Below, one piece after another: positions 841-50,595 of a stretch of 50,595 bases of DNA. A program made the translations under genes and the position numbers. The notes beneath the pieces were generated by a model. That model ran no database searches, was not told where the DNA came from, and saw only the letters and a program-made list of their open reading frames with translations. Origin of the DNA: a virus (lineage: Duplodnaviria > Caudoviricetes); IMG/VR virus record IMGVR_UViG_3300009604_000003, positions 1 to 50,595 of that record. One strand, given 5' to 3'. Position 1 is the first letter of the stretch. Each line of letters starts with the position of its first letter.

Positions 841-1893
841 TTATGCCATGGCTCTGTATACCTCTTCCCCGTGCTTCTCTCCGACTAACTGATGGAGTAG
901 TCCCATCACCCTGTCACACTGATCCCCACCCTCTCCCCACGATGTCTCTACTATCGTATCCAGTCCCAGTGCATCACGAACGTAGTCCTTAGTTTCCAAT
1001 GCCCTTCCATGACTAGGATCACCGATACATGAGGATCTCTGTATCTGGAAGCAGTATCTCCTGAACAGACCGGGGACTCCTACACTCATGATCCGTTCAA
1101 CATCGAGAGGTTCGTGTCCCCCCTTCATAGGCCACATGATTGCCACGTTGTAGTCATCCCAACAGGTTCCAGTGTGACCTCCATCTGGATCACCAGTAAC
1201 TGGCGAACCATCTGGATCCTTAGTCCCATCATCCCAAGGGGGATGATCTTGGTGCTGGTTGGACAGCCCCCATATCTCCACTCCATATCCCAGTGCTGTC
1301 AGTCTCTCACATAAGCAGGCTGCCATTGCTGACATCCTGCCGAACGTCTCCTCACTGTTTCCCCATGAGACACAGACATTTATTCCGATTTTGATGATCG
1401 GATTCACACCGATGTTGGTAACGCTATCGAATACCGGGATCGGTCGGTCTGTGAACGTGGACTCTAGGTGACGTATGGGATGGACAAATCCACCACACCA
1501 GTCGTACTCATGCTTTCTTCGAGCGGACTGGCACTCTTCCATCGGCAACTCTAGTCCCATTCGAGCAGTGATTTCGGTGTTCAACTCGTGATAGATCTCA
1601 CGGCACTTATCCGATGGAGCCTTTCCTTGTAAGAGAATCTCGTCGGTCCCCTTGCTTCCATGTGAACCGAACACCCATTCATCATCGTGATCTCGACCAT
1701 ACTTCACTCCGTAGTGAGTATCCTCATCGAAAGGACGCTCCGTTTCTGCTTGGCGCATGAGATCAGTAAGGGACGGGAACCTTATCTCATGTACTTTGTG
1801 CCACTGAACACCGCCATCGTCAGCCTTGTTCACCCATCGAACATCTGCTCTAAGGGCACCCGGCATCTCATGGATTCTCATATCGTTACTCAT
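841..1893 (-). CDS. Probable VWA/CobT-like partner of the MoxR AAA+ ATPase
   Basis: Overlaps the AAA+ gene end; degenerate MIDAS-like strand IKIGINVCVSWG followed by helix-strand LTALGYGVEIW; MoxR-VWA pairing is common. Confidence 0.55.
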   Translation of the reverse strand: MSNDMRIHEMPGALRADVRWVNKADDGGVQWHKVHEIRFPSLTDLMRQAETERPFDEDTHYGVKYGRDHDDEWVFGSHGSKGTDEILLQGKAPSDKCREIYHELNTEITARMGLELPMEECQSARRKHEYDWCGGFVHPIRHLESTFTDRPIPVFDSVTNIGVNPIIKIGINVCVSWGNSEETFGRMSAMAACLCERLTALGYGVEIWGLSNQHQDHPPWDDGTKDPDGSPVTGDPDGGHTGTCWDDYNVAIMWPMKGGHEPLDVERIMSVGVPGLFRRYCFQIQRSSCIGDPSHGRALETKDYVRDALGLDTIVETSWGEGGDQCDRVMGLLHQLVGEKHGEEVYRAMA

Positions 1894-3166
1894 CGTCGAT
1901 CACCTTTGCCCTTTCCTCGTCAGTCCAGTCTGCCATGCAAGCCTTCATGATTGAGTCATCACTCTTGCCGTCTCCATTGACACGACCTGCTTCGGTACAG
2001 CGATAGTGAACCGCTCTAGCAGCAGCAGCCACCGTCCTAGTGGATGGAATCCTGTGGGGGAGGTTCGCTTTAGCACACTTCTTCCGAAGTTTGTGAATCC
2101 TCTCCAGTAATCCCAGTGCATCCTGAAGGATACGGCGTTCTAGATTCTCGTCATACCCTACGAATATTCGGCATAGACCGGGGAAGCGATCCATCACAGC
2201 AGCATCCTGCTTCATACGACCTGTGTACTCCCCAGTGGGACCACACAGGGTATTCATAGCGATGATGGGGATGAAGTCCGGGTGCTGTGTAGCCATCGGC
2301 TTATCCCTCCTGAATGGCACGGGTCCATGGCCGTTACCGTCATAGAACGGGTTTAGTCCCACTGCTGCATTCGGTTCGAGGTTATCGAACTCATCGCTGA
2401 AGTGGATGCCCCCGTTTTCGTACATGTTCAGCATCTCATGCTCATTGAAGCCACCAGTTCGAGCGTCTGGAATGCCGAGGTAATCGAACACGGTAGTGCG
2501 GTTAGTGCAGGAGATCTCACTGAACGGCAGTCCAAGTGCCTTGGCAATCGAGGACACCATTCGAGACTTCCCAGTACCACGGGGACCATGGAGTAGGACT
2601 CGTTGCTGCTCCATGACAGTCTGTAGTACCGATGGGAACGCTTCATGCTGGTCATAAACGCCGTGCTTTTGCTGACGTTCAGGAACAGTGACCTCGATCT
2701 TCACTCGACAGTGATCGATAGCAACCTTCTCAGCAACGTCAGCAGCAGCCTCTTTAGCGACCCTTCTAACCTCGGTCCAGTCCACCTCAGCAGAGCCAAC
2801 CAAGTCCTTGATCGTACTAATGAGGACATGATCCTCTCTGGTTGGTTCGTCTTTGAACCAGTAAGAGTCATGTGAGGGATCGATCCCCAGTTCCTCACAT
2901 GCTGCTGACCATCCAGCCCAACCCGTTCCTGTCTCTTCGGGCCTGTTCTCCCATCGGGACATGTAAATCACCTTGGCGATTGCATCTCCTGAGATGGCAG
3001 CCTTACGAACCTCGTGTTTACGAGCAAAGTTCAGGCTATTCGGGAAATGCCCTTCACGGCACCTTGCGAGGTAGTCTTTGAAACCCCTCGCAGTCATGCC
3101 GTACGTATCCGTGTCCCATCTATCTGATGGTATCGGATCGAATGACATATAATCGTTATCTAACAT
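1886..3166 (-). CDS. MoxR/CobS-like AAA+ ATPase
   Basis: Walker A GPRGTGKS, Walker B IHFSDEFD, HPDFIPIIAMNT sensor, DAAVMDRF arginine finger; AGGAG SD. Confidence 0.9.
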   Translation of the reverse strand: MLDNDYMSFDPIPSDRWDTDTYGMTARGFKDYLARCREGHFPNSLNFARKHEVRKAAISGDAIAKVIYMSRWENRPEETGTGWAGWSAACEELGIDPSHDSYWFKDEPTREDHVLISTIKDLVGSAEVDWTEVRRVAKEAAADVAEKVAIDHCRVKIEVTVPERQQKHGVYDQHEAFPSVLQTVMEQQRVLLHGPRGTGKSRMVSSIAKALGLPFSEISCTNRTTVFDYLGIPDARTGGFNEHEMLNMYENGGIHFSDEFDNLEPNAAVGLNPFYDGNGHGPVPFRRDKPMATQHPDFIPIIAMNTLCGPTGEYTGRMKQDAAVMDRFPGLCRIFVGYDENLERRILQDALGLLERIHKLRKKCAKANLPHRIPSTRTVAAAARAVHYRCTEAGRVNGDGKSDDSIMKACMADWTDEERAKVIDDE

Positions 3167-3215
3167 TGCACTGACTCCTACTAAACGATGAAAAACAAAT
3201 CAAAATCTGGCCTCT

Positions 3216-3268
3216 CTCCCCCTCCCCCCTCTCTCTTCATTCTGAAGAGAGAGAGGGGGGAGGGGGAG
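3216..3268. promoter_or_regulatory. Conserved bulged hairpin, copy A (core CTCTCTTCA-TTC-TGAAGAGAG)
   Basis: 24-bp stem, 3-nt loop, 2 extra nt in right arm; same core at 47380 and 50238. Confidence 0.8.
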
Positions 3269-3299
3269 GTATCCGGCTTCCCCCTCTCACGTTCCTGTT

Positions 3300-3423
3300 C
3301 CTGTATATGTGAACTCCTGTACATGTGAACTGCTCCTGTACATGTGAACTGCTCCTGTAACTGCACCTGTACATGTGAACTTCACCTGCACCTGTGTATG
3401 TGAACTTCACCTGTACATGTGAA
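3300..3423. repeat. Tandem CCTGTRYATGTGAA repeats (6 full copies, 1 truncated)
   Basis: Copies at about 3300, 3316, 3335, 3366, 3391, 3410. Confidence 0.9.
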
Positions 3424-3426
3424 AGC

Positions 3427-3537
3427 CTCACGTGAGGGAGTCGCACCCTCACGTGAGAATGGAGAGTTATATCTCACGTGAGGAGATCATCCTCACATGA
3501 GAAAACTCACGTAAGAGAGAGTTATCTCTCACGTGAG
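3427..3537. repeat. Array of CTCACGTGAG palindromes (4 perfect, 2 variant)
   Basis: Perfect at 3427, 3448, 3473, 3528; CTCACATGAG at 3492; CTCACGTAAG at 3506. Confidence 0.9.
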
Positions 3538-3550
3538 GGAAGGGAGAAAA

Positions 3551-3584
3551 ACTCCCTAGAGAGAGGGAAGTCCCTCTAGGGAGT
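3551..3584. other. Inverted repeat/hairpin downstream of early gene 2
   Basis: ACTCCCTAGAG...CTCTAGGGAGT, 11-bp arms with inner GAGGGA/TCCCTC. Confidence 0.7.
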
Positions 3585-3592
3585 GGGATTGA

Positions 3593-3892
3593 TCAGACCA
3601 TGGCAACCTCCCTTGGAACGAACGGGATTCCCTCCTGAAGGAGGAATCGTTCAGCCTCATCCCTCAGTATGGAGTAGTTGTAGTCCCCGTCTCCATTCAG
3701 ATCGAAGAGGTTGACATCCTCTCCTTCCTGAACAAAACCGTGAGAGAAAGCGAAGAAGATGAACTTGATGTCATTCTTCACGAACTCTGTAACTGAAACA
3801 GGTTCCTTCACGTGAAGGACTGTCTCTGTACCGCTAACGGGAAGTCCTGAAACTGTGACTCTCTCAGTCATAGACTCATTGAATAAACTCAT
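3593..3892 (-). CDS. Hypothetical immediate-early protein (acidic C-terminal half)
   Basis: 99-aa ORF with AGGGAG SD; hairpins inside the coding sequence. Confidence 0.75.
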   Translation of the reverse strand: MSLFNESMTERVTVSGLPVSGTETVLHVKEPVSVTEFVKNDIKFIFFAFSHGFVQEGEDVNLFDLNGDGDYNYSILRDEAERFLLQEGIPFVPREVAMV

Positions 3893-3938
3893 TGCTGTAC
3901 TCCCTTTCAGAGTAGAACTAAAGACTAAAATGGAAAAA

Positions 3939-3993
3939 CTCCCCCTCTCTCGGAGAGAGAGAGGGAGCGGATTCGATCTCTTCAGAAGAGATC
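3939..3993. other. Two adjacent intergenic hairpins
   Basis: CTCCCCCTCTCTC-GGA-GAGAGAGAGGGAG and GATCTCTTC-A-GAAGAGATC. Confidence 0.7.
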
Positions 3994-4477
3994 AGACTTG
4001 GTTACAGATCCAACGAGAGGTCTTCACTCTCTTAGCATTGTGAAAGATCTTGTTGAAGATCATTCCAGACTGAGAGACTCTCTCTTCAATGGGAAGAGAA
4101 AGCCAGTTCTCAATGGCAAAGTGCTGAGCCTTTGAAGCCCAAACTCGGTTCTCTAGGGAGAACCGGACATTCACTTCCAAACCGGGAAGTTGAGAGGCTT
4201 TCAGGGGAGGAACTGGCCATCCAGACAGTTTCACCAGAGACCTTCCCTCTTCAGCAGGGAGACAGTGAAACTTGATCTCAGTTTCAGTAGGAACTGAAAC
4301 TGGAGCCTCGTTCCCAGAACTCACAGAGTGAGTTCTGGAGAGTTCCATTTGGAGTTGGATCAGAGCCTTGGTACTGAGTCCTTGGAATGTAGCACCTCTC
4401 ATTGAAGGATGGTCCTTCTTGATCCTAGAGATGATACTTTTTCTTGGACTGAGACGATTCTTTGTTGAAACTGTCAT
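3992..4477 (-). CDS. Hypothetical immediate-early protein (first gene of the leftward transcript)
   Basis: 161-aa ORF with AGGAG SD; basic N-terminus; dense internal hairpins. Confidence 0.75.
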   Translation of the reverse strand: MTVSTKNRLSPRKSIISRIKKDHPSMRGATFQGLSTKALIQLQMELSRTHSVSSGNEAPVSVPTETEIKFHCLPAEEGRSLVKLSGWPVPPLKASQLPGLEVNVRFSLENRVWASKAQHFAIENWLSLPIEERVSQSGMIFNKIFHNAKRVKTSRWICNQV

Positions 4478-4539
4478 TGCAGAAATCTCCTAAATCGAAG
4501 AGGAAGAAATCCGAGCCGAGCCGAAACTTTTTCAGCCCG

Positions 4540-4651
4540 CTGCCCTTCTTTCTTCTCTCTTCTGTTCTCTTGAAGAGGGAAATCTCTCTCCCCTCACTTT
4601 GTTCGGGGAGAGATATTTCCCGTCGAACAGAAGAGAGAGAAAGAAGGGCAG
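4540..4651. promoter_or_regulatory. Long imperfect stem-loop upstream of the first early gene
   Basis: 27-bp outer stem with 1-nt bulge, plus 17-bp inner stem GGGAAATCTCTCTCCCC/GGGGAGAGATATTTCCC with one mismatch. Confidence 0.7.
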
Positions 4652-4709
4652 TACTTGCCATCTAACTATCTCCTAGTACTAAAGACATATGGCGTCGGCC
4701 TCGAAAATC

Positions 4710-4738
4710 GGGGGGAGGAGGGAGGGGAGGAGAGGGGG
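4710..4738 (+). other. Polypurine tract matching the G-quadruplex consensus
   Basis: G6-AGGA-G3-A-G4-AGGAGA-G5. Confidence 0.55.
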
Positions 4739-4812
4739 AAGTACAGATAACTAAGAAGACCGGACATCTTTGATGCTTACTTATCTATTAGAACTTACTA
4801 AGTCTCTTCACG

Positions 4813-5111
4813 ACAAACACTTAGAATCCATAGGATTATAAGTGTTTGTGAAACTCTGGTTTACCAGAGTTTCACGGCGCACGTTGGGTCACACAGTACA
4901 GAGTACTGTGTGACCCCGATCTGATTTCAAAGTACCACTTAGCATATCTCTTTGGAGATATGCTAAGTGAACCCAGCCACAACGTACCCCTTACTCTGTA
5001 AGGGGTACGTTGGTTTTCCAGAGCCGATCATCGCTTTACAGTACTAACAGGGTTAGTACTGTAAAGCGTACGCGTCTCAGGGGTCGGGTCACATCGTGAC
5101 CCGACCCCTGA
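4813..5111. repeat. Array of seven tandem sequence-distinct hairpins
   Basis: Stems of 13-17 bp with loops of 2-4 nt at 4813-4849, 4848-4875, 4886-4916, 4936-4969, 4980-5012, 5032-5068, 5077-5111. Confidence 0.95.
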
Positions 5112-5197
5112 CGGCGGGGTTGCTTTTTAGTTATAACCTGCCCCAAGCAAATCTAAATATTTTTGGTACACTCCAGACGATCACAGGAGGATCTCAA

Positions 5198-5554
5198 ATG
5201 GATATACCTATCCCTAAAAAAGCGTGGCCTATTACTGATAAGTTCTTGGTGTACCCCGATCCACCCGACAAGGAAACAGAGGCGGGTATTATAATCACCG
5301 CAAGTTACCCCAAGTTCACTGGAACTGTAGTCAAGTTACCAGCAGATATTGAGGCGATTGATAGTCGTGGTTCATCGCACACTAAGTTCGATGCGAAGAA
5401 GAACGATATCGGCACGTTTGTTACTGTCGGTTCACGAATCCAATGGTCTAGTCAAACCGGATTCGCGGTTCCAGTTACCGTAGATGTAGATGGGGAAGAC
5501 ACTGACTATCTTCTATTCACCATTAGAGATGTGGATTTGATACTAGATGTTTGA
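5198..5554 (+). CDS. groES: GroES-like co-chaperonin
   Basis: PITDKFLV, ETEAGIII mobile loop, GTVV, VTVGSRI, DGE..YLL..RDV pattern; ATG 5198 follows an AGGAGG SD. Confidence 0.8.
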   Translation: MDIPIPKKAWPITDKFLVYPDPPDKETEAGIIITASYPKFTGTVVKLPADIEAIDSRGSSHTKFDAKKNDIGTFVTVGSRIQWSSQTGFAVPVTVDVDGEDTDYLLFTIRDVDLILDV

Positions 5555-5669
5555 ATTGCCTTTTTTAACTATGATCGCAGATAAATGGAAACTTCCCTTC
5601 GATGAGGGAGAAGGTGATATATTAATAATAGAAGAAGAAGAAGAACCAGAGGACGAACCTGATGGTTAG
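5547..5669 (+). CDS. Small acidic protein (40 aa), not in the ORF track
   Basis: MFELPFLTMIADKWKLPFDEGEGDILIIEEEEEPEDEPDG; overlaps the groES stop and the terL start. Confidence 0.4.
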   Translation: MFELPFLTMIADKWKLPFDEGEGDILIIEEEEEPEDEPDG

Positions 5670-7905
5670 GACAAACAAGGGTTCTATGTCGGTTAGTGAG
5701 CAAGAAGCCACTAAGCACGGTATGTCTCTGCCTTATATTCCCGGTGCTGAGAAGCCTAGTTGGATAGATCGTAAAGAAGACGTTTGGCTTGATAAAGACC
5801 ATACGCAGATCAACCCCTCCTACTTGATTGAGGAGAGGGATAGGATCATCGATTTTTCTGACAAGCATTTTAATTACTATGGATTCCGCTGGCTCATGGA
5901 GGCGGATATGTTGAAGGGCATCGTAGAGCAGGCCAAGCACTTTGGTATTGACCTGACTACGTTTGCGCCCGAGACGCTTTCTTTGAAAGACATTCAGAAT
6001 TTTGACCAGTTGATAGAAGCGGGCAGTGAGACTCTTGAGATTCTCATTAAGCGCATTGAAGATGGTCATGAGCGGGCTGTCCGCATGTTGGACGAAGCAA
6101 AAAAAAAGCGTTGGGTCGATACGCTCAAGAAAATATCGATGGTAAGGGAATTGTGCAGAGAAAAAGATCACCCAAGTCTCGACGCAAAAAGTCGGGAGGG
6201 TGAGGCTTGGCGCTACATGCATACGCTTAGGTTTGCGTTGTATGTAGGGCGAAGTGACATTACCGGCAAGTTGGACTTCATCCACTTACCAGATCACCTG
6301 ATCCTTACGGATCTTGTGAAAGAGATCGCATACGAATATCGGGAAGACGCTGAGATTCAGGGTGTCATGATTGTCATCCCGCCTCGTCACGGAAAGTCAT
6401 GGTTCATGATTTTCGATGAGTTGCTTGCTATCTGCATGAATCCAGATGAAATTGGGGCGATCATCCATAACTCAGAGGACATGGCTGCCAGTCGTCTGAA
6501 GGTTATTAAAGAACATTTCAACGATCAGTTGCCGCAGGGGAAGCGGCGGCGTGCTTTGTTCCCCGAGATTAAGATGGATTGGAATATCAATAATAGTCAG
6601 ACGATGGTTCTTCAGAACCGGAATGTCATGGCGATGGAAGGGAACTGCAACTCGTACGGTTTGCACGGCAAGCGCCTCGGTGTCACGATTCACCGTCTTA
6701 GAGGTGATGACATCATTGACCAGAAAGAGTGCAGAGAATCGTCAACTAGACAGAGAACCAACGAAACCTTTACGAAGGTGTGGCTGTCTCGATTGACTTC
6801 GAAGAGAGCATTCTTCTTTATCATCGGTACTAGGTGGCATGACGATGACATCCTCGGAAAGATGCTCAGAATGCTTCGTGCCGGTCAGACCAATTTTGCA
6901 TATGTCTCCATCCCTGCTGGCGGGCCAGAGGATGACTTCACTCCTATCTGGCCGGAGGTAGGATACGACACAAGATATCTTGAGCGGTGGTTCTATACCT
7001 TGGGGCCACAGGACTACTCCTGCATTTTCCAGAATGATCCTGACACTGCAACAGCACGTAAAATCACGAAGTTATGGTTCTATGACAAGCGGTGGGTAGA
7101 AAATCCAGACGATGCTCCGCAGCATGTAAGGAACTTCTTAGCACGTGGAACTTATGCCCTATCGGTTGATCCTGCCGGAACAGAGGCTAGGAGATCTAAC
7201 AAGGCTGGAATGACTTATTGTGTGTATGGGCCTATGGAGGTGAAGTTGCCATCAGGCCTCATTGTTGAGCAACAAACTATGTGGTTCTTGCGCAACTGGG
7301 ACTTGTCTGCCAGTCAATACACCATTACAAAGATAATCTCGGACTTCTATAATAGGCAAAGAAGGGCGGATGGAAGGCCAGAGGTGGATCGTATAGTCGT
7401 TGAAACCACCGGGGGTTTCCATGCGACTACTGAGATGCTCATCAATGATCGTGGTATTCCTGATAGCGTGGTCATTAAACGCGCTCCGGGTAAGGGAAAT
7501 AAGATTGATCGGTTCCTCCAATACTCTGCGTTTATTGAGGGAGGCAAGGTCTATTTTCCGGGTACACCATCCAAGGGTATATCGGATGACGAGCAACTTG
7601 TTATGGACAACGATTGGTCTGAAGCGGCCAACCAGATGTTGCGAGCGGGTACTGTTAGTGATTTGAACCTGCTGGACTGTATATCCCAGCAGTTGGCAGA
7701 TGTCGCCTATATCTTCATGGAAGATAATGTCCACGATCATCCCGAACTTCTTGCTAGGGAGAGGGCGCGTCAATCTTCTTATGGCGAGGTTAAGTTGGAG
7801 ATGTACAAGAGGAAGATGGAGGGAGACAAGAGAAAGAAGGACCGAAGGAAGAATGGTTCATCTCTTGGTTATTTACGTCAAATTCAATCGAGGAGATTTG
7901 GGTAA
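5662..7905 (+). CDS. terL: Terminase large subunit with long N-terminal extension
   Basis: VIPPRHGKS Walker A, GDDIID Walker B, IIGTRWHDDD motif, SVDPA RNase H nuclease motif. Confidence 0.9.
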   Translation: MVRTNKGSMSVSEQEATKHGMSLPYIPGAEKPSWIDRKEDVWLDKDHTQINPSYLIEERDRIIDFSDKHFNYYGFRWLMEADMLKGIVEQAKHFGIDLTTFAPETLSLKDIQNFDQLIEAGSETLEILIKRIEDGHERAVRMLDEAKKKRWVDTLKKISMVRELCREKDHPSLDAKSREGEAWRYMHTLRFALYVGRSDITGKLDFIHLPDHLILTDLVKEIAYEYREDAEIQGVMIVIPPRHGKSWFMIFDELLAICMNPDEIGAIIHNSEDMAASRLKVIKEHFNDQLPQGKRRRALFPEIKMDWNINNSQTMVLQNRNVMAMEGNCNSYGLHGKRLGVTIHRLRGDDIIDQKECRESSTRQRTNETFTKVWLSRLTSKRAFFFIIGTRWHDDDILGKMLRMLRAGQTNFAYVSIPAGGPEDDFTPIWPEVGYDTRYLERWFYTLGPQDYSCIFQNDPDTATARKITKLWFYDKRWVENPDDAPQHVRNFLARGTYALSVDPAGTEARRSNKAGMTYCVYGPMEVKLPSGLIVEQQTMWFLRNWDLSASQYTITKIISDFYNRQRRADGRPEVDRIVVETTGGFHATTEMLINDRGIPDSVVIKRAPGKGNKIDRFLQYSAFIEGGKVYFPGTPSKGISDDEQLVMDNDWSEAANQMLRAGTVSDLNLLDCISQQLADVAYIFMEDNVHDHPELLARERARQSSYGEVKLEMYKRKMEGDKRKKDRRKNGSSLGYLRQIQSRRFG

Positions 7906-8273
7906 TGGGCATTACACTTGTAACGGTACTCGTAATGGGCGGGGTCGCTTTGGCAGCCATTGGGATCATGGTATTCCAGTGGAGTGTTGTTAATCGTTTG
8001 GAGGAGAAACTGATTTCCGTAGTAATGGACGTTCACGAGGAAAGCCGCTTCTATCACAATGCTGGCAGGTCAAGTGCCGAACATCAACTAAGCATTGAAA
8101 GATTGAATATAGAAAAGATCCAAGCAGAGGCCGAAAAAGCAAAGGCAGAAGCGGCTAGGATGACAGAAGAGAGATTGACAAAAGAAACATTTATAGGTAC
8201 AGGCCCTCCTAAACACGGAAAACGTGGACACCGTAGAACTGTCGTAGAGGCCGCAGGCGGACCAAATGGCTAA
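7905..8273 (+). CDS. Hypothetical membrane-anchored coiled-coil protein
   Basis: N-terminal hydrophobic helix and AEAEKAKAEAA coil; coupled to terL and portal. Confidence 0.7.
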   Translation: MGITLVTVLVMGGVALAAIGIMVFQWSVVNRLEEKLISVVMDVHEESRFYHNAGRSSAEHQLSIERLNIEKIQAEAEKAKAEAARMTEERLTKETFIGTGPPKHGKRGHRRTVVEAAGGPNG

Positions 8274-10371
8274 ATACTCATCAGCCAAAGAAATCTTAGA
8301 ACGAGTCGATGATTTACGCGAAGAGCATCAGATGCTTCGCGCAGATCTCGCGGTTTATAGCGCGTTGGGCGTGTCATATGCCCATGGCAAGCAGTGGAAG
8401 GGTATGGATTCTTCCAACTTTGGGGATCTTATTATTGATGAATGGGAAGAGAACTACGACTTGCAGACTCGTGAGTTGCGCGTCGTAGACAATAAGGTTG
8501 GCCCCCTGCTCAGGCGGATGCAGGCCGATCTAAACCCCACAAAAATTGAGGCGAAGGTTTCAACACCTCGCCACTTGTGGGGTTTGAAGGAGAATCAACT
8601 AGCCAATACATGCGAGAAATTGTTATTGGGTATTGAAGAAGATGCCCAATTCACGAAGGCGGCGGCCCATGCTAGTTTCATGCGGTGTATTGAAGGTAGC
8701 CATTTGATGGTTATCGAGTTGTCACAGAAGAAAAAGTCTATCAGGAAGGAGGTGATCAAGAATAAGGACGGGTCGCCGGTTGAGGTAAACGATAGATGGC
8801 TTAGGTGGACAACGGCTCCACTTACTGACTTGGTTTGGGATCCCTCTAATATCCACCCAGATCTAACCCAGCACACTGTTCTGATGCTTGATCAGGTCAA
8901 AACGATCAAGCGCTTTGAGGAGATGTTTGGTCCCATTGAAAAATATGGGGTTAAAGAAGAAGATCTTCCGACCCTTGATGAGATTGCTCCGTATTACTCA
9001 CAAGCCGCTGATATAACCGGAACATCTCTTCACATCGCCTATAACGCCTATCGCAAAGAGAAGGCGGTTAAGGTCATCACTCTCCTTGAGCGTGATCCAA
9101 GAGATCCCACCATTTGGCCTACTTGCTACTTCATTCTTGATACCTCTTCTAGAGAAACCAAGAGTCGTGGCAAGGTTTTGAATATGGATAATCCAAAGAG
9201 TCCCTTTGGGCACCATGGTCGCAACATATTCAAATTGGACTGCTTTAAGAGATCGGATTCTGTGTCGGGTGCAGGCGCGCCACATGTAATGATGACAACG
9301 CAGGATCTGATCAACATGCTGCGATCAATCCAGATGCAAGCGGTGTCAGCGCAGGTTCATGGGCAGTGGCTTGTAGATAAGCAGACTGTTGATCCAGATG
9401 AATTCATGAATAAACTGAACTCCGGTATAGGCTCGGTACTTCAGTACGACAGTCGTGGCCCGGAGAATCGGAAGCCACCGCAGTTGGTATCAATGGGGAA
9501 TGTTGACAACAACCTTCTCCTTATTGCCAATGATCTATCCAACGGTCTTAGAGATCAGATCCACTTGAGTGGTGCGAACTTGGGTATCGGTAAGACTCAC
9601 ATGCCACAGCAATATGCGTTGCGCCTCTTGGAAGAAGCGGGGGCGGTTAAGGATCAGTTGATCACTGCTGATGTGAATACATACGGTGATATGCTAAAGG
9701 TAACGCTTGGAACCATTAGAGATATCATGGATACGCCGAACAGAATGCTCAAAAGGCTTATCGATGTTCATGGGTTTACAAAGGAAGATCTGGTTGGTTT
9801 TAAGAAGTTGGATGCAAAACTGATCAGATTTAATATTTTTGCACGAGAAAAATCAATAATTAGTAGGAGTGTTGCGGAGAGGCAGCAGCAACTAACCGAG
9901 GCACTTCAAGCGCAAACCATTACGCCACAGGAGTATTGGATTGGCATGGCAACCGACATCAAACAGCCGATTCTTAACTCTCATGACGACATAATCAACT
10001 GGTGTAATCGCGCAGTAGAGCAAATAGTTAACGGTGAGGAGTGGCAGGGAGTGAGTTCAATCGATGCTTCTGTCTTCAAATACTGCATAAATACGGCTGT
10101 TACTGGCCTAGATTACACGATTCCCGAAGATAAAGAGATTATCGAGCGGCTTAATAGAGCGGTTCTAATTCAGTTCACGGTATCCGCTGAAGCAGCGATG
10201 GCTGAACAGCAGATACTCCAATCGGCCATGCCTCAGCAGCCGGGACCAGAGCCGCAGGGCATGCCAGAGGGTACTCCGGGTATGAGTATAGGGCAGGCAC
10301 CGGAATCAATTAACCCACAAACCAATCCAGTAGGAGCCGCAGGTGGATTACCACTTGGACTTTCTGCATAA
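8266..10371 (+). CDS. Portal protein (probable)
   Basis: 701 aa, between terL and scaffold/MCP; YAHGKQW and VVDNKVGP N-terminal pattern of P22-like portals; Q/P-rich tail. Confidence 0.75.
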   Translation: MAKYSSAKEILERVDDLREEHQMLRADLAVYSALGVSYAHGKQWKGMDSSNFGDLIIDEWEENYDLQTRELRVVDNKVGPLLRRMQADLNPTKIEAKVSTPRHLWGLKENQLANTCEKLLLGIEEDAQFTKAAAHASFMRCIEGSHLMVIELSQKKKSIRKEVIKNKDGSPVEVNDRWLRWTTAPLTDLVWDPSNIHPDLTQHTVLMLDQVKTIKRFEEMFGPIEKYGVKEEDLPTLDEIAPYYSQAADITGTSLHIAYNAYRKEKAVKVITLLERDPRDPTIWPTCYFILDTSSRETKSRGKVLNMDNPKSPFGHHGRNIFKLDCFKRSDSVSGAGAPHVMMTTQDLINMLRSIQMQAVSAQVHGQWLVDKQTVDPDEFMNKLNSGIGSVLQYDSRGPENRKPPQLVSMGNVDNNLLLIANDLSNGLRDQIHLSGANLGIGKTHMPQQYALRLLEEAGAVKDQLITADVNTYGDMLKVTLGTIRDIMDTPNRMLKRLIDVHGFTKEDLVGFKKLDAKLIRFNIFAREKSIISRSVAERQQQLTEALQAQTITPQEYWIGMATDIKQPILNSHDDIINWCNRAVEQIVNGEEWQGVSSIDASVFKYCINTAVTGLDYTIPEDKEIIERLNRAVLIQFTVSAEAAMAEQQILQSAMPQQPGPEPQGMPEGTPGMSIGQAPESINPQTNPVGAAGGLPLGLSA

Positions 10372-17091: not shown

Positions 17092-20000
17092 TTAGAACTT
17101 AGGTTGCTGCGGAATATGTTGTCCGGGGACAAATCCCTCGCGCCTAAGAACCGTCATATCCTCTCTTCTAAATTGCGGATGTAGCACCTTGGGAACCCTC
17201 TGTCTCATGCCAGAATGCCACATAATCCGATACTCTTGAATAATTCTTGTTGCTATACTTTCTGCTAAAACTTCGTCGCCTTCTCTTACTGCTCTATTTA
17301 CCTGTCTTTTTAAAGCCTGAATATCCTTGTTTCTTTCCATGCTAATTCGCATCTGCAATTTTCCGATGTCTAGCGGCTGCCATCTACCCCTAACCGCTAG
17401 TTTATATAGTACACCCTCTAAGCCGTCTGTTTTCCCTGCTTGTGTTAATTGATTATAAGAACCAACCCACCCGATTTGCCTTCTTAGATACTCTCCGATT
17501 GATAACCCGCCGAGTTCTTTGTCTCCGATTAGTCGTTGATCGAAGGTTTGTATTCCCAAAGCAATTTCAATTGGTGCCTTAATTAAAGGCGAAGAAGACA
17601 TAAGGAAATAATGCATCATTTCCTTCAATCCTTCTGCGCCATAGAGTGCTTGACCGATTTCCGCGAGTTCTTGAATAGGTGTTAGTGTCCCAATCCTAAG
17701 ACCCTTGGTGGTACCGTCATCCGCGCTCATCTGTATCATGAGTTGATTGCGCTGATATCGCGGCAATATAAATGTCGGTACTTTATCTTCTTCCTTTAAT
17801 GTTTCTTCCTCTATCGCGTGTTTGATCTTCTGGAAAGAAGCGTGATATTTAGGTTTCTCGAATAGCAGTTTGAATTGAAGTGCAATGTTATTTCTCTGCC
17901 ACGCATAGAATGGAATAACTCGTCGTCCAATAGACTGTTCGAGATTGGTGAAGTCCCCGTAATCGAAGTGCGCCTTCTTCATCAACAACTGGGCTGCTTC
18001 CAGAGAATCGCCCCTGTCTCGCCTTGCCATATAAACAAGTGTTCTAAATGTATCGTCGATAGATGCATTTAGTTTGAACCACCAAGCACCAAGTGGACCT
18101 GCGGTGGCGATATTTTTAAGGAAGCCTTGTTTAACCTTTCGGGCCTGTGCATTGGGATTGGCGTAGGCCGTTCTATGAGTCATAAAGATTTCGCGCGCAA
18201 CCTGACTTCCATCCAGCGCATTAATACGAACAAGATGTTCGGCAAACTGCGTTTCGTTTAATTCTTCACCCGCAATGATATATTTTTTGGTGTCGTCGAA
18301 AGACAGTCCCGGTCCATGTGGAATGGTTTTTGCCAACCTGTTGCCGAAGTGGTATTGGCTCGCAATATGATGTGCCTTCCTGAAGTTTCTAAAGAAATCA
18401 GCGGGCGTAAGTTCTCCAACTACGATTGAGTGGATGACTCCCCCCATTATATTTACAGTGGTCCAGCCGGGGTGCATCAGGACCGTACCTTTCCAGATGG
18501 ATTGTATGTAATCAAACATACCGGCTATAGCGGATAGATTCTGGTCGTTGGTTATCTTGGTTAGATAATCTTCAACGGATGCTGCGAGATCTTCTGGATA
18601 CCAGAGATGCTTCCCCTCAGTTCCAAATAGCGCTTGTAGTGTTGCATCGTCTCTGACTTCTTTAGACAATCTTCGGTAAGAAACATTATTAATAATGATC
18701 TCCCCGCCTTCGCTAATTGATCCTACTCCAGCGCGGGGGTTTCTTACATAATCCTGAATCTCAGCATCCTTTAGGATCTTTATTTCAGGGCCAATGTAAT
18801 TCAGGAAATCATGCACTGCTTCTATGCGGTGATGTTGCTTGGCTCTGTTCCCAAGAACAAGACCTAAATCAGTTTCGAAGATTTCTCCCGCAAAACTATT
18901 GCCAGTTAAGTGTGCAAATCTGTCTCTTACACCCGGTCTATTTAGTTCATATGGGCTAGTTGGGTGTGCTTTGAACTGCCACGATTCACCTTTAATATCG
19001 CCTCCGGGCAGCCCGCCAGTTTTGCCTTCTGCAAGTAGCGCTTGGTTATATTCCGCGATATCTCCGGGCAGCATCTTCTCCGGGTTTTGTCGTAGGAATG
19101 TTCGTCTTGCTAGTTCATACGCCTCTGGCAAATTGCCATCGTTTATCTGCTGGCTAAATACATAGGACCAACCCTGACCAGTTTCATCAACCCAGTCCGG
19201 GTCATGTTCTGTTGGATACCAATGCCTGTTCGTTGCCCTATGTCTACCGGATGGCTCGTTTATCGATATCCTTCCGGTAGAAGGATTCCTTCGAACACCA
19301 AGAGCGCCCTGTTGATATGCCGCTTTTTGCGCTTCCTTGGTAAATCGTAATGGTATATAGGCAAATGCGGGGTTATACGTGCCCTGTGCGGCCCAATCCG
19401 ATTCACTTAATCCATATTGTCTATGCCTATCAACAACCTCTTGGGCTAGATCCGTGATCTGCTGATCCTTCCAGATAGCATCTCGCCCCCCATGCTTAGC
19501 CATTACGTTGTCTAGTGACTGAGGATTAGATGGATCAAATATCCAATCTGATTTATGGAATCCTCTTAGACCGTGTTTGCCGCCTTCTTGCAGTTCTATC
19601 ATCTTGGCGAGGAGGATTACATTAGCGTCCTCGATATCCATGTCGTGTCTTTTTGCTATTGTCTTTACACTTTTGTCATAGTGCCTAATAACAAGAGACT
19701 GCTTGAATCCCGGCAGGTTGCCGTGTGCGTATCTGAATCTCGATACGGCTTCACCAGATGTAGCATATCTTCTACCAACACCAGTTACGTTTCGGAATAC
19801 CCGATCAAATCTTTCCGCTACTTTAGCCGCTGAGTTTACACGGCTTTTCTTCATGGTATCCAACTTCGCGTCAATGGGTGCCCTTGCTTTACGAGCGGCA
19901 TCTCTAGCCATCTGCACTTTTTCGTTTAGATCTACAGTCGAACTGGCAAGATCTTCTATATGGTTATAGTGCCCTCTGTTCTTGGCTTCAATCCGGGCCT

Positions 20001-23000
20001 TTTTGTTGGCTTGTTTTCGATACTCTGTGGCTGATCTCTTGGATTCTATTGTTGCACCAAATGTCAGGTCGAGTGTTTGCTTTAACCTGCCTCTAATTGG
20101 CGCTTCCCTAAATGCTGCCTGACCGTATACCTCTTTCATGTATGCGGCTAAAGTTTCAAATGCTTCTTGCAATTCCGGGGTAGGTGCCTTGCCTGTTCTG
20201 ATGTTTTCCAGCACAGCATCTACAAAGGCCTCGTGCGCTTCTCTTGTCCAGTTCCCCTTAACTACTCCGAATTGTCTTTCTATACGTGCCCTTACGCCTA
20301 CCGGCATAAACTCCAATATAACGTGACCCATTTCATGCAAGAATGAAACAGCATCGGGCGCATCAAGTGCGCGAATTAGAGCGGTTCCACTCTCCAAGAA
20401 TTCAGCCGAGGCCTTAATGGTTCCGTCTCTTGTTTCGAAGAAGTAATCTCTTCCTTGTGCCGACCTTCTTCTGACATCACTACTCATTGTGAAGTACGGT
20501 CTTTGCACCATTCTGGATGCTATTTCATCCACCGCTTCTAGGCCAATTGTGTCATAAAGTCTTTGGAGATCCCTACTCTTAAGTTGACGCACAACCTGTG
20601 CGCCGGTTGGGTTAACATCTACCGTTAACCCAACAATTTTGGCAAATATATCTGCTTCCGCATCTATAACCTCCATGGTTGATGTGTCTCTCCATCGACT
20701 TGGATTCGTAAATCCAGCGTCATCTGCCTTGAGTCCCTTTCTAGTTTTATATAGAGTCACGGCCTCCTCAAAAGACATCTCATTTAGCCTTTTGGCCCAC
20801 TCATCTGAATTTTCCGCGATCCCAAGTGCCCTTAGTTGATCTTTTGCATTATCTACTTTGTTATAGAAATCCCTAACCATTTCCTCTACAAGTTTACGTG
20901 ATTCAACGGCGTCGGCCCCGGTTGATAAACCACTTATAGACTCGAAGTTTGCACCATCTAATCTTGCAAGGGCTGCTGATCTGTCTGTAGCCATGAATAT
21001 ATATGGATCGCCCATAATGTTTCCCATTATTGGGCCAGCGAATCCTCCAATCGGGCCATATTCAAGTTTTCCACCGACACTTTCTACGGCTTCTTTGAAG
21101 AATCTCGGGAGTTCTTTTTCATACCAACGTCCTGTTTGAGTTTCCAGTACATTAGTATTATTCCACCTGTTGAGTTTTATTTCGTTTGCTCGCGTGTGAC
21201 CGATTTGTTGTGTCAATTCATTGACATCCCAATCCACTCTCGTCGGGATTATTAACTCATTGACTTCTTGCTTCCCAGTTCGCTTTTGTGGACCAACTGC
21301 GCCTTTCTTTCGTGCCTTGAGTTTTAGTTTAAGGTGCGCTGTGTATCTACTCGTATCAGCCTCACTGATTCCACGAGAAGCGTTATGAACCAAATGATCC
21401 GATAAAGATGCACTATCATGCGCCTCGGGCGCTGCTCTGGCAGCCTCTTTGGTACGAACTATTTGCCATTCAACTACATTGTTTCTTCCGTGTAGCAGTC
21501 CTACCCCGTCACTGATTCCGTCTCCCTCTGTTACGGAACGCAAAAGAGGCGCGATGTTTTGTGAGTCTGCCGGTTCAGCAAGCCTTGAATCTTCTATCAA
21601 TGAAATTATGAATTTTCGCGCTCGTTTTATTGTTAATCCGGGATTTAGGTCTTTCAATTCTTTGGCTAAATCATCTACCGTTCTCGTAGGAGTTCCTGTA
21701 ATAAACTCTTGGAGCGCATCCCATTGTGTGGTTCGTGTAAGCCTATTAACAAACTTATCTCCATCCCCCATCGCACCAACCATATGTTTAGCATCGCCTA
21801 TCATGACCTTCTTAATATCACCATGTTCGTGAGCATATTTGCCTATCATTTGGCGTATTGCTGTTCTGGCCCAGTTCTTCTTTGTGGCTCCGTGGAATTC
21901 GGGAGCGAACTGCCCGCCCCATATACCTCGACCAGCGCCCTTGGCGGTTTGTTCAATGCCTTGATTAATTAGGAATGCCGAGCGTAGTTCCGGTGGCAAA
22001 TCCCCAAGCGCTTGCACTACATCTCTGGTTAGTACCCCATCAGACCTTACTATATTATCGATAGCATTTCTAGTTTTTCGTAGGGCATCGTCCTCTTTCC
22101 TCCCCAAACCTAAACGTAGAACTGTTTTTATATCTTCCCCATAATGGGCTTCCACGCTTCTAATAAAGCCCTGCAAAGCGTTTTCTGCGCCTTGCATAAC
22201 ACTACTACTCACATCATCAATTACCATAATTTTGCCGCCAATGTTGCGGTCGTGAAGTATGGAAACTTGGATTTGCCCGACATGTCCGGCCATGTCCCCC
22301 AACTGACTTTCCGATGCGTTGCGAGATACAGGCAATGCGCCTCGTGATCCAAATCCCTGACTTCTAGTATCCACGGCGAATAAGTTGTACACTTGTGTTT
22401 CGAGTACATCAGCGTTTCCAACGCTTCTTTCGGGAGAATGATCCCCATAAACCCGGCTTCCATGACGCTCGGTACTTTGTGCGTGCTTAGAGGCACTAGG
22501 AACCATCGCCTCGCTTCCCATGTCCATAATCAAGGACATGTTTCTTGCTTCTGTTTCCAAGTTCGAATATTGAATTGCTAAGCGTGTCAACCTTGGATCA
22601 TTGATATTAGCAACAGCGTGCCAGAAACTCGATGCTTCATAGATCGCTAGGTTCCCCGATCCCTCAGATGGTACTTTAGTCCCAAGAAGACGCGATCTCT
22701 TCTCACCCCCGTAGCGAGAATGACCAGCAAGATCCCCACCAAATTCGGATTGTATTTCATCCCACAATGTTGCTTTGGCTGCTTTGTTTTCTTGGTGCAT
22801 CCGATGGAAATGAGCGCCAAGTTCTTCCGGTATATGTTGGTTGTATCCATCAGATCCAACCAAGTGCATATACAAACCATCTGATGAGTTAGCATCAACC
22901 CAAGAATTCATAGCATTGTGATCAATACGTGCTTTGGTGCCTCGGGTGGGCTGAATCGGAGCATGTATAGGACTATAAGGTTCCCATGTGCCTATACTTA

Positions 23001-26000
23001 CTTCTCCGGGTCTAGTGAATCTATCTTCACCCAGTCTTTTTACAATTTTGCCACCCTCTGGTCTGACTCGTGTTCTTCTTGCAATTGCTGGATCAAGTAT
23101 CACATATGAAATACTCCCCTTATCTTCTACTGTGTTAACGTAAGGAATTACGTCGTATCCCCGATCTCGTATTTCTGCTATTTTTTCGGGGTGTTTAATG
23201 AGCCATTCGTTTACTGTAAGGTCTTCAATCATACTCCCATCTATTTCACTGTAGAATGGTCTTGTGGCCCTTATCTCAAGTTCATAAACTGCCTTGGGGA
23301 TTTGGCCTTCCCGATGTCGTTTGGAATACTTAGCGGGCTGGAGGGGCAGTCTTTCTCTAGCGGCTCTTAATGTTCCGGCGTGAAGTGGTGGTGCCTTTTT
23401 ATACGTGTACAAACGAAATTCACCCCGCACCTCATCCCCACCGTGATAAACCGTAATAGTTTGGTTTTCTGGAAATCCCGATTCAATTCTATCGAGATAA
23501 TCCAGCATCCAAGAGGCCCGTAGTTCCTCTTGGTTGGGCGGAGCAATAACATTCAACTCATCAACTAGATCCCACCCATCATCTATAAGGGCGGTTTTTT
23601 CTGCGTTGTTCAACGAACGCCAATCCTCAAAGAGAACTGAATCAGGCTCACCAGCCGCAAACGCTAGTTCCCGCTCAGCAGGGGTTCGATGGTCTCTGAC
23701 CTCAAACTCCATAAGGAAGTGTCGCCATTCCTCTACCGAGGAGTTTTTCTTCATTACACCAGAACGAACAGCAACATCCACGAGGTTTTGCACTCGCCAT
23801 CGTTGCCATATTTTCGGATGGTGAGTTAGTCTAAGTTGCTCGACGATGTTCCCGAGAAAATATAGACCCTCTGAGTTGACTCCATCTGCTCTGGAGAGTT
23901 CGTGGGCATTTCTGTAGTGGAGGCGTATCGCTTCGTGGATCCTTTCTTCCCTTTTTGCCTGCGTGGTCGCTTTCGTGGACGGGGCGAGTTTTTGTTTGGT
24001 CCCTTTTTGGGCATTTACTTTTGCTCCTTTAAATAATTTCTTGAGTTCTATCCCGTGAGCCTCGGTCCAAGGTACATCCTTATCCAAGAATAACCAAGCG
24101 ACCATTTTGCCATCTTTTTCAGCGATGTGTATATCAATACCACTAGCCTTAGCGCCGGTCCATTTCTTGAATTGATTAAGGCCAACCGCAACTGAACTCG
24201 CCCTTGTTGCTGCTGGGAAATTTCCAGCAGAAATGCGACTAAGTTCTACAATTGTCTCTGAACCATCGCCGGTAACAAAGGTGATAGCCGTGTCATGGCC
24301 GCGAAGTCCGGCCTGATGATGCGCGGTAAATGCTATTTGGTGTCCCAATACCTCTTCTGTTGTATCACCGATCCACAAGGCGGAATCCGTGTGGCCTGCG
24401 GTTCCGTGGGATATTCCCATGCTGTTGTCTACCGGTGTTACTTTCGACAATTGTTTGCCGATAAGTTTAACCGCTGTTTGGTGCCCTTCTTTTTTCGCGA
24501 GTTGCTGAGTAAGTTTCCATGCATCCCCCGCACTTGATTCAGCCTCAACCCCTCGATGTAAGTAAAACAGTCTTGTTGCATCTCCGCTTTCCGATGCAGG
24601 GATAGAGTGGAAGAATGCACCTCTGCCGGGGGTTCCGCCCTTAACGACATTGATCTTTGTTGACAAGAATTCGGTGGGTGTCAACCCAAATCTGGGAGCA
24701 AGAGAGGTAGCCATGGCATCTACTAGATATGACAGAGCCTTTGCCACCTTTGCTGGGACATTGAACTTTACTTTTATGTTGTCAACGAATTCGGTTGCAC
24801 CGGGTCGTGGCTTGTAGTCCTCGGGTATGAGGGCTTCCATCCTCTTCGTAATCTCATCGATTTTCTTTTGGTTCCCAAGAATCACGTTGGCTTGAAGACG
24901 AACTATTTCGTTTGTATTGGATCTCGTAACCTGACCAATTTGTTGTTCTACCAACTTCCTTTCATGTTCAATGGCGTTTACCGATGCTTCCATCGTGTGC
25001 ATCTTTTCGTTCCACCCACGGAACATTCGGCCAAACCCACCCGGCCCAATGTACATGTCGAGGGCTTGCGCCATCTCGTTGCCCCGAACACTATCCACCG
25101 CATCAAGAATGGCTGACGATTGCGGGGAAAGAAGGGATTGGATTTCTCGTGTAGTTAACTCTTCTCTTTGCAAAAGAGACTTGAGTTCTTTTTCTGTCTT
25201 TGTTATTACCTGTTGAAATTCAGCCAGCCCCTCTGCCACTTCTGCTGGTACTTGCTGCAACTCACCAGCCGCGCCCTCTAGCGCAGGAAGTGTGTTTTTT
25301 AGTTCCGACTCCGCGACCTTGGCTGATTGCAGTTTGTTAGTTGCCTTCTCAATAGCCGATAAATGCACGGCATTTCTTTCGTGCAATTCGACGAGTTCTG
25401 CCAAGGAGTCCCGCCTTCTGGTTTTACTTTGTTGTTTAAGAAAAACCTCCAAACTCGGCTCATCAAATCCTGACGTTATATCCGCATCTGGTTTCCACTT
25501 GATCCTTTTACCGTCCTCCATGAGTATGCCGTCTTTGAGATATTTGTATTCATCAGCAGTTAGATCTACTACCTTTACCCTGAATCCAACTTGCGGCGCT
25601 GTCTGGTAATCGGAAATTCCATTTCCATTGCGGGGTGCCCATTCGATTTTGTTAGCCAACTTCTCGTTGCCCATGGCTTTTCGAAGAGCGTTTTGATATT
25701 CAACAACAGCCTCTCCCTCCCTCTTGAATATCGGAGCGACGAGTTCAACTGTTTTATAAGCACCCATCTTGCCGAGCAACCCAGCCTTATATGCTTTTAG
25801 AACTGCTCTATCAGCATTTACAAACGCCTCATAAGCGGTCCTTGCCTCCATGCCCTTTGAGCCTGTTGCACCCGGCACTCTCTTAAACTTGGATAATCCG
25901 CGAAGGGCTTTGTACTGCCGTGCAGTAGCCCCGAACTTAAACGGGACAGGCATATTGGTAAGTATGTTCCTGTATCCAATCCTTCTCCACAGGAGTGGTG

Positions 26001-38747: not shown

Positions 38748-38975
38748 GGATACTTGGGACACATGGGACACATGTTCTTATAAAGCCCAATCAACTCTAT
38801 TCGCTTACTCTCTTTTTGTTATATATTTCTACTGTTTAATGTGTCCCAAGTGTCCCAAGTGTCCCAGCCCCAAAAAAAATTGTGTGTAAATATTTGTCAA
38901 CACAGGCCTTATAAAACTTCCTGAGACTGTGGCCCTTCGCCCAACATGTGTCCCAACATGTGTCCCATGTGTCCT
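38748..38975. repeat. Putative replication origin: GTGTCCC iterons around an AT-rich spacer
   Basis: GGGACAC x2 (inverted), GTGTCCC x3 at 38841-38865, two more plus a variant at 38948-38975; immediately downstream of the primase-helicase gene. Confidence 0.7.
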
Positions 38976-47379: not shown

Positions 47380-47424
47380 CACCCTACCCCCTCTCTTCAT
47401 TCTGAAGAGAGAGAGGGTAGGGTG
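47380..47424. promoter_or_regulatory. Conserved bulged hairpin, copy B
   Basis: CACCCTACCCCCTCTCTTCA-TTC-TGAAGAGAGAGAGGGTAGGGTG. Confidence 0.8.
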
Positions 47425-50237: not shown

Positions 50238-50284
50238 CACCCCTACCCCCTCTCTTCATTCTGAAGAGAGAGGGGGTAGGGGTG
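50238..50284. promoter_or_regulatory. Conserved bulged hairpin, copy C
   Basis: CACCCCTACCCCCTCTCTTCA-TTC-TGAAGAGAGAGGGGGTAGGGGTG; contains the stop codon of 50256..50579. Confidence 0.8.
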
Positions 50285-50579: not shown

Positions 50580-50595
50580 ATCATCCCCTTTCTAA
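50473..50595. repeat. Terminal direct repeat (copy 2)
   Basis: Identical to 1-123. Confidence 0.95.

Follow-up and report, generated by a model that had tools for sequence, protein, structure and literature searches.

Hairpin-rich early control regions are known from a few model phages, where they are located between genes. In T7, with its RNase III sites, and in the N leader of lambda, with nutL and its terminators, the hairpins of the early transcripts lie between genes. The promoter hairpins of phage N4 have stems of 5-7 bp. Three N4 promoters, with a conserved sequence from -17 to +1 and loop bases 5'G and 3'A, are described in the available extract of the N4 study, which gives a hairpin with a 3-nt loop and a G:C closing pair as promoter criteria (PMC4496689). 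The injection-stop (iss) region in the first-step-transfer DNA of T5 is, in the excerpt available, untranslated and defined by eight DnaA boxes. At the RSF1010 origin, the accessible part of the source has RepB' priming on 40-nt inverted repeats (PMC8567376). No hairpin-saturated phage gene appears in the available portions of the literature matches listed on inverted repeats or cruciforms in phage genomes. Here we describe a locus of a marine phage in which perfect hairpins run through an open reading frame.

Genome Organization

The window analyzed, 50,595 bases, is an entire IMG/VR record (IMGVR_UViG_3300009604_000003) that consists of one contig from an uncultured marine phage. The first 123 bases are repeated at the contig end, so that the assembly circularises and the contig, closed by this terminal overlap, does not give the physical ends. 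Recognizable genes encode the large terminase (5662-7905, plus strand), a P22-type portal (8266-10371, plus strand), an AAA_5 ATPase (1886-3166, minus strand), a primase (38974-41382, minus strand), and an SNF2 helicase (41790-43130, minus strand); a giant ORF of 3418 aa occupies 17092-27348 of the minus strand. The primase matches PriCT_1 at 23.3 bits (cut-off 21.1) and RepB_primase (PF16793) at 20.2 bits, which is under the Pfam cut-off of 24.3. A search for tRNA and tmRNA genes found none. The best match of the terminase among cultured phages is ~22-26% identical. The lineage is marine and almost unannotated, and any defined class of signal would be an aid to reading its transcription and replication programme.

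Genes run rightward from ~5.2 to 16.3 kb and leftward from ~4.5 kb through the contig junction to 16.3 kb. From these orientations, the ORFs at 3992-4477 and 3593-3892, which we label g1 and g2, are the first two leftward ORFs past the divergent intergenic region. Their position and the replication genes downstream suggest that both are early genes.

Hairpin Content of g1

g1 (3992..4477, minus strand) is an orphan ORF of 161 aa with a pI of 10.3 and, as had been remarked from the letters alone, no tyrosine and one aspartate. Hairpins were scored when perfect, with a stem of at least 5 bp and a loop of 0-8 nt, the score being the sum of (stem length - 4). By this measure g1 contains 16 perfect hairpins, and stems occupy 33.3% of the ORF. 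The strong ones lie at 4146-4165 (8 bp), 4279-4302 (10 bp), and 4314-4338 (11 bp, with an AC-aga-GT apex), and further hairpins start at 4046, 4072, 4081, 4173, 4266, and 4404. An earlier sequence-only reading had listed ten inverted repeats in the two ORFs, and all of them are where it placed them (3631, 3804, 3856, 4046, 4072, 4081, 4146, 4279, 4314, and 4404); the one at 3631 is a 6-bp stem with a loop of 2 inside a bulged longer stem.

The number of hairpins in g1 is far above what its protein sequence would give. Synonymous shuffles (n = 2000) contained 5.26 ± 2.09 hairpins, and none reached the 16 of the real sequence. The score of 39, compared with 8.06 ± 3.69 after synonymous shuffling, was reached by 0/2000 synonymous and 0/2000 dinucleotide shuffles. 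Stems of at least 6 bp numbered 10 as against 1.9 in shuffles, and stems of at least 8 bp numbered 3 as against 0.25. The excess was likewise matched by 0/1000 block shuffles at each block size (6, 9, 12, 18, and 30 nt) and by 0/1000 sequences with codons resampled from genome usage; local synonymous swaps within 20 codons reached the g1 value once in 1000. On the synonymous, dinucleotide, block, and local shuffles, an artefact of composition was rejected. Among 103 coding chunks drawn from 50 ORFs, g1 ranked first with a z of 9.05, the runner-up having 4.54 and the median being 0.47.

Folding energies gave a similar picture. The RNA minimum free energy (MFE) of g1 was -177.4 kcal/mol as compared with -140.5 ± 7.2 for 150 synonymous shuffles, corresponding to a z of -5.15 for the sense strand, and the z for the antisense strand was -4.84. 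In raw folding energy per base g1 ranked 5th of 71 tiles of 486 nt, and after GC correction it ranked first (z -3.0). When seven segments of g1 were folded as DNA, four proved individually significant: those at 4146, 4279, and 4314 were each matched by 0/200 shuffles and that at 4404 by 2/200. The g1 stems are pure Watson-Crick, and the G-U extensions that flank them show no strand bias.

A scan of positions 3000-5400 with Rfam 15 returned 40 matches at E ≤ 1, of which none attained the gathering score and none lay inside g1. All were of generic hairpin-to-miRNA type; a single one (3545-3600), likewise below the gathering score, reaches into the 3' end of g2. A tRNA-like element or a known RNA family was rejected. 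Operator sites of one dimeric protein were also rejected, as the palindromes differ among themselves in sequence. The intrinsic-terminator criterion, a G+C-rich stem with a T run behind it on the transcribed strand, picked out only one weak 5-pair site (4317-4300) inside g1.

These results support the conclusion that the excess is confined to g1 and that its codon order yields stems beyond what protein sequence, codon usage, and local composition account for. A nucleic-acid signal does overlap the g1 reading frame. In this frame, which belongs to a double-stranded DNA phage, the hairpin load is about nine standard deviations above the need of the protein.

g2 and Its Palindrome

g2 (3593..3892, minus strand) is an acidic ORF of 99 aa with a pI of 4.4 and a D-x-N-x-D-G-D loop. 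The sequence-only reading had described both of the first genes as saturated with hairpins, with a structural code laid over the protein code, and had proposed comparison with codon shuffles and with the rest of the genome. For g1 the shuffles bear out the saturation and partly support the overlaid code, but neither idea extends to g2. Its 4 hairpins compare with 3.1 ± 1.6 in shuffles, and the fraction of shuffles that reached its count was 0.37 and its score 0.125. Among the coding chunks it ranked 28th of 103 (z 1.47), and the folding-energy comparison, so clear for g1, gave an MFE z of only -1.18 (sense) and -0.62 (antisense). In DNA folding, the three hairpins listed for g2 did not outperform shuffles (z -1.1, -0.5, and -1.5). 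The g2 codon score is typical (0.214), and an ORF of this length arises in 41% of shuffles of the region. We take g2 to be an ordinary gene for a small acidic protein.

The 16-bp palindrome TCCTTCACGTGAAGGA within g2 (3804..3819) carries a TCACGTGA box. There are seven TCACGTGA boxes in the genome, and besides the g2 copy four are found at 3428-3536. The palindrome is best read as an extra box of this operator-like array rather than an element of a hairpin code.

The Module Surrounding g1

g1 lies in a module of ~2 kb, from 3167 to about 5111, that is dense in hairpins and repeats and is situated between the two divergent operons. The top 18 of ~500 windows of 500 nt, ranked by hairpin score, all fall within 3001-5500, and 14 of the 33 perfect stems of at least 8 bp in the genome are within 3229-5111. 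Outside the hotspot there are 19 such stems as against 4.8 ± 2.5 expected. The DNA is visibly rich in GA/TC, as had been noted from the sequence: GA, AG, TC, and CT dinucleotides together make up 0.33-0.52 per 100-nt bin at 3501-4800, compared with 0.267 genome-wide. Nine terminator-like sites are found in 3000-5400, as against 2.7 ± 1.7 in shuffles.

At the right-hand end of the module are six perfect hairpins arranged back-to-back (4848..5111), with stems of 13-17 bp and loops of 2-4 nt. Four of the six have an AC-NNN-GT apex, which confirms the earlier remark that the g1 hairpin at 4314 has this apex in common with the upstream array. Next to the array an imperfect 17-bp hairpin on the minus strand (4813..4849) contains a perfect TATAAT (4840-4835) with a weak -35 element. 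This TATAAT is a candidate leftward early promoter; a sigma-70 scan at its thresholds found no leftward promoter. Further towards g1 are an all-purine tract of 32 nt (4710..4741, plus strand) and, in the g1 leader, an imperfect hairpin of ~110 nt (4540..4651, minus strand).

A perfect 9-bp hairpin spans the g1 stop codon (3975..3993). Directly after g1 and directly after g2, on the minus strand, are intrinsic-terminator-like sites that have a GA/TC stem style in common, a GA/TC hairpin with a T run at 3938..3968 and a hairpin with a T run at 3551..3584. Beyond g2, CACGTG-box palindromes that pair into hairpins form an array (3427..3540), one hairpin of which (3537-3506) resembles a terminator on the minus strand. 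The array is followed by iteron-like direct repeats (CCTGTACATGTGAACT) spaced 19-31 nt apart (3290..3423), whose copy number varies between strains, and then, upstream of the AAA ATPase gene, by a long minus-strand hairpin of GA/TC type with a T-rich run after it (3211..3269). A hairpin family of 41 nt, to which this long hairpin belongs, has three copies at gene junctions (3222-3262, 47382-47422, and 50241-50281), and a hairpin inside g1 (4078-4102) is 84% like this family from the junctions of the same-strand operon.

Strain Variation and Relatives

Strains were compared using four marine runs from four studies. The module is mosaic between strains, the differences listed including 25 nt lost at 3373 and 11 nt gained at 3400, while the segments 3667-3733 and 4490-4697 are replaced by other sequence. 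In one strain 4490-4697 is swapped for 254 other letters, and the break falls exactly at the Shine-Dalgarno (SD) sequence of g1; the SD, the ORF, and the terminator thus behave as one cassette. One strain has a strongly diverged 5' half of g2, with the 3804 palindrome destroyed. g1 itself is kept while its flanks are swapped, with 7 of 486 positions changed (98.6% identity), and the six-hairpin array is also kept (nine differences and one gap in 461 nt). None of the seven g1 substitutions in a strain of 1.4% divergence falls within a stem of at least 5 bp, which has a p of ~0.06 at best if the substitutions are independent; as three of the seven are adjacent, the avoidance of stems is only suggestive. 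More diverged contig pieces, at 5-13% divergence, also exist, for example one with 16 differences in 4044-4170.

Portal homologues of 68-72% identity are found on marine contigs of ~44-50 kb, two of which, G001 and G002, were compared with the present genome. The ends of G001, whose portal match is 70% identical over the best segment, overlap by ~240 bases, which shows the contig to be complete. Between its ATPase gene and a GroES-like gene is a 617-nt spacer with three stems of 6-7 bp and without g1 or g2, and G002 is like G001 as far as its contig extends. All that the relatives have in common with the present genome here is a small CCCC..GGGG hairpin and a TTTTT-N-TGGTACACT motif ahead of the rightward operon. 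As the relatives are without the module, the region from 3167 to about 5095 is lineage-specific. Nevertheless, the G001 genome has 17 perfect stems of at least 8 bp as against 4.7 ± 2.2 expected, with a hotspot among its small leftward genes that is milder than the one described here (maximum 25 per 500 nt, compared with 69). This makes it look as if small early genes of the family habitually have perfect hairpins within and between them, g1 being the extreme case.

Wider searches did not reveal the locus elsewhere. The region 3100-5200 had no blastn match among phage records, no related locus was confirmed in a viral contig collection searched with g1 and with the ATPase, and three hairpin patterns gave 0 matches in the same collection. 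A portal profile search of genome contigs found only a 3.6-kb MAG contig, which does not contain the region.

Translation of g1 and Role of Its Hairpins

g1 is quite probably translated. The alternative is that it is a non-coding stem-loop array, whether structured RNA of a leader or trailer or an element of the DNA, whose frame is open by chance; this reading partly overlaps the others discussed below. It would account for a codon score near zero (0.04 bits/codon, with only 1 of 34 reference genes lower), for the lack of any homologue besides g1 itself in collections of 5.8 billion and of 1.84 billion proteins, and for the low-confidence fold of the Atlas model (pLDDT 0.46). It would also fit the substitutions in the 1.4%-diverged strain, where seven nucleotide changes give five amino-acid changes and one synonymous change, a dN:dS pattern without purifying selection. 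However, the annotated frame scores highest of the six, and just 2.2% of 2000 module shuffles contained an ORF of at least 161 codons. An in-frame stop lies four codons upstream of the ATG with no earlier start after it, and the ATG is preceded at a correct spacing of 8 nt by AGGAG, although such an SD-like match is cheap here, since AGGAG is ~4 times commoner in the GA-rich stretch (8 in 1534 nt) than genome-wide (1.25 per kb). All 161 codons are kept in three full-length variants. Four of the five replacements are conservative (three K/R and one I/V), and the diverged contig pieces over 4044-4170 and 4213-4350 differ by substitutions without gaps, whereas pieces that include the intergenic flanks are gapped. 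On this evidence a non-coding g1 is unlikely. Nevertheless, g1 has more the look of a young gene carried on hairpin-rich DNA than of an established protein later overlaid with a structure code.

The hairpins could instead be signals in the DNA, extruded as cruciforms under supercoiling or folded in single strands and read by a phage enzyme as structure-specific promoters, in the manner of N4, or as primase-loading sites, in the manner of RSF1010 ssi, in which case those in g1 would be of the same element class as the array at 4848-5111. The stems are perfect on both strands without strand asymmetry, and the three strongest g1 hairpins have loops of 3-4 nt. The AC-NNN-GT apex of the 4314 hairpin, in common with four of the six array hairpins, occurs in 5 of 9 long hairpins, for which a hand estimate of chance is ~1e-4. 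Should the divergent promoters be the TATAAT at 4840-4835 and, near 5165, the conserved TGGTACACT, the array is untranscribed and at least the array must act as DNA; it probably does lie in untranscribed DNA between such promoters. Iteron-like repeats are nearby, and the phage has a PriCT_1 primase with a weak match to RepB-primase, although that match is under the Pfam cut-off. Against a role as DNA signals, the g1 stems are mostly just 5-7 bp, the hairpins have no conserved flanks in common, and the array is absent from relatives. The N4-type version fared badly in the sequence tests made. No homologue of the N4 virion RNA polymerase (vRNAP) was found by phmmer, profile, PHROGs, or tblastn searches. 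Specifically, the 3418-aa ORF gave nothing below E 0.04 by phmmer or below E 0.28 with a four-sequence profile against the PDB, no match in Pfam or by tblastn against phages, no usable match in an Atlas search with the centre of the protein, and in PHROGs only phrog_9880, a family of unknown function. The loops (AGA, AGG, TCT, and ATC) are not the 5'G..3'A that N4 extrusion needs. The earlier suggestion that this is first-entering DNA that becomes transiently single-stranded is not supported: the closed contig does not give the physical ends, strand asymmetry was not found, the giant ORF has no similarity in sequence to the vRNAP, and N4 promoter features are missing from the hairpins. Overall, we judge a DNA-signal role improbable. 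It is very improbable that the g1 stem-loops and the array are DNA promoters or priming sites for an enzyme unrelated in sequence to the N4 vRNAP; if they were, extruded DNA hairpins would have been put to use a second time, independently, in starting early expression or replication, and here with the signals passing through a translated frame. A non-adaptive origin, in which GA/TC-rich DNA prone to slippage and template switching leaves inverted duplications that persist as the g1 protein is barely constrained, would suit the repeat-unit indels and whole-segment replacements that distinguish strains in the module, the mostly non-synonymous changes in g1, its orphan status and low-confidence fold, and the perfection of the stems, as young copies would have. 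Just outside the g1 stems 15 of 36 mismatches are of transition type, where a hand estimate gives ~10 by chance, which would fit the decay of longer stems. However, the excess is very large (z 9) and is present at every stem length from 5 to 11 bp, g1 is conserved between strains while its flanks are swapped, the apex motif is common to a g1 hairpin and the array, and a second genome of the family is also enriched in hairpins of unrelated sequence. We therefore regard a purely mutational origin as doubtful.

We tentatively prefer the explanation that g1 is a lineage-specific, cassette-like orphan early gene whose hairpins are selected and most likely act in the early transcript. The g1 hairpins, which are at the least strongly non-random, would have been selected for function, and the stem-loops would be a nucleic-acid feature overlaid on, or predating, a weakly constrained frame. 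The string of stem-loops in the first early transcript may cooperate with the long leader hairpin and with the GA/TC-style terminators flanking g1 and g2. Such a structured mRNA could be protected from nucleases or be processed; alternatively, the outcome could be pausing or attenuation ahead of read-through into the ATPase and replication genes. Action in RNA is favoured because the g1 unit is bounded by GA/TC terminators of the same style, because a related hairpin family is found at cistron junctions of the same-strand operon, and because the hairpins of the relative are in and between small early genes. We infer on these grounds that the hairpins act in RNA, although the seven strain substitutions include no compensatory change and leave the stems untouched, the raw folding energy of g1 is only fifth of 71, g1 has a single weak terminator-like site inside it, and the hotspot of the relative is much weaker. 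With perfect stems, strand-symmetric folding energy, and no G-U bias, RNA is not favoured over DNA by any test, and action at the two levels cannot be told apart from the tests made. If the hairpins are functional, g1 is a clean natural dual code and may be an instance of a young gene that arose on regulatory DNA with structure. If they are no more than debris of mutation, the locus still points to a hypervariable module that is prone to recombination.

Comparison with Known Systems

Like the N4 early promoters, the locus has, in front of the first early genes, a cluster of short perfect hairpins with 3-nt loops and a C:G closing pair, and the giant ORF is of a size like that of the N4 vRNAP. 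Unlike in N4, the stems here are 5-17 bp long, many of the hairpins are inside an ORF, and the loops differ. The loop sequences here read aga, agg, tct, atc, agga, and tagg, no flank is common to the hairpins, and a C:G pair closes the loop in 5 of the 9 long hairpins.

The densest part of the present locus is an ORF, unlike the iss region of T5. DnaA-box matches with one mismatch number seven in the genome (chance mean 11.9), none of which is in 3000-5400, and a T5-like injection stop was rejected as the region has no DnaA boxes. The combination of iteron-like repeats, hairpins, and a gene for an archaeo-eukaryotic-type primase is reminiscent of RSF1010 with its oriV and its ssiA and ssiB sites, as far as the available text of the source describes them (PMC8567376). 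Nevertheless, RSF1010 has two 40-nt sites where fifteen or more hairpins are found here, and the RepB_primase match of the phage enzyme is under the cut-off.

The early regions of T7 and lambda offer a further likeness. As in those phages, a long leader hairpin precedes the first gene and hairpins are located at gene junctions, and the first protein is small, basic, and probably disordered and is followed by terminators. The difference is that here hairpins are found throughout a coding sequence. The locus is thus an unusual variant of the hairpin-rich early control regions of phages.

Hairpins in the Genome and in a Relative

Outside positions 3000-5400, the region set apart in the counts, the window contains 19 perfect stems of at least 8 bp compared with 4.8 in block shuffles. 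The complete genome of a relative, G001, contains 17 compared with 4.7, so that the excess over block shuffles is about 4-fold in both. Many of these stems are intragenic, for example those at 20606, 27986, and 32362 (11 bp each). The termini of the record (1-123 and 50473-50595) overlap by 123 identical bp, showing that it is a closed assembly, circular or permuted, of 50,472 unique bases.

A family of near-perfect 41-nt hairpins (CCCTACCCCCTCTCTTCA ttc TGAAGAGAG...) has three copies, at 3222-3262, 47382-47422, and 50241-50281. Each copy is immediately followed downstream by the start of a leftward gene, and only the first is followed by a T run. The copies are connected in assembly graphs.

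Hairpins and Repeats between the Divergent Operons

Six perfect hairpins with stems of 13-17 bp and loops of 2-4 nt lie back-to-back at 4848-5111, between two divergent operons. The stem sequences are unrelated to one another, and four of the six hairpins have an AC-NNN-GT apex. The array is absent from G001 and, as far as its contig reaches, from G002, the relatives' contigs identified through portal homologues. It is kept in one strain variant, with 9 differences and 1 gap over 461 nt.

Two elements upstream of the GroES-like gene are conserved in all three genomes, at 5102-5172 in the window and in the loci of the two relatives (L001, 150-225; L002, 140-225): a small hairpin, CCCC..GGGG, and the motif TTTTT-N-TGGTACACT. 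The motif resembles an extended -10 element, and the packaging/structural operon probably has its promoter region at 5102-5172.

Within 3290-3540, four to five copies of an iteron-like direct repeat (CCTGTACATGTGAACT) adjoin an array of five to six CACGTG-type box palindromes. Repeat copy number varies among strains (a 25-nt loss and an 11-nt gain). Together the repeats and boxes may form an origin or operator array.

The leader of g1, the hairpin-packed orphan gene at 3992-4477 (minus strand), carries an uninterrupted 32-nt purine tract (G/A only) at 4710-4741, which could adopt a triplex or G-rich structure.

Features of Two Predicted Proteins

The minus-strand ORF at 17092-27348 encodes 3418 amino acids. 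Across four relatives its N-terminal (residues ∼1-480) and C-terminal (residues ∼2290-3418) parts are conserved and its center is variable. No sequence match was found in Pfam or the PDB. Residues 2338-2342 form an H-E-x-G-H motif.

Residues 64-76 of the product of g2 (3593-3892, minus strand) read F-D-L-N-G-D-G-D-Y-N-Y-S-I-L. This loop has no family match; it resembles the calcium-binding loops of EF-hand or dockerin proteins.
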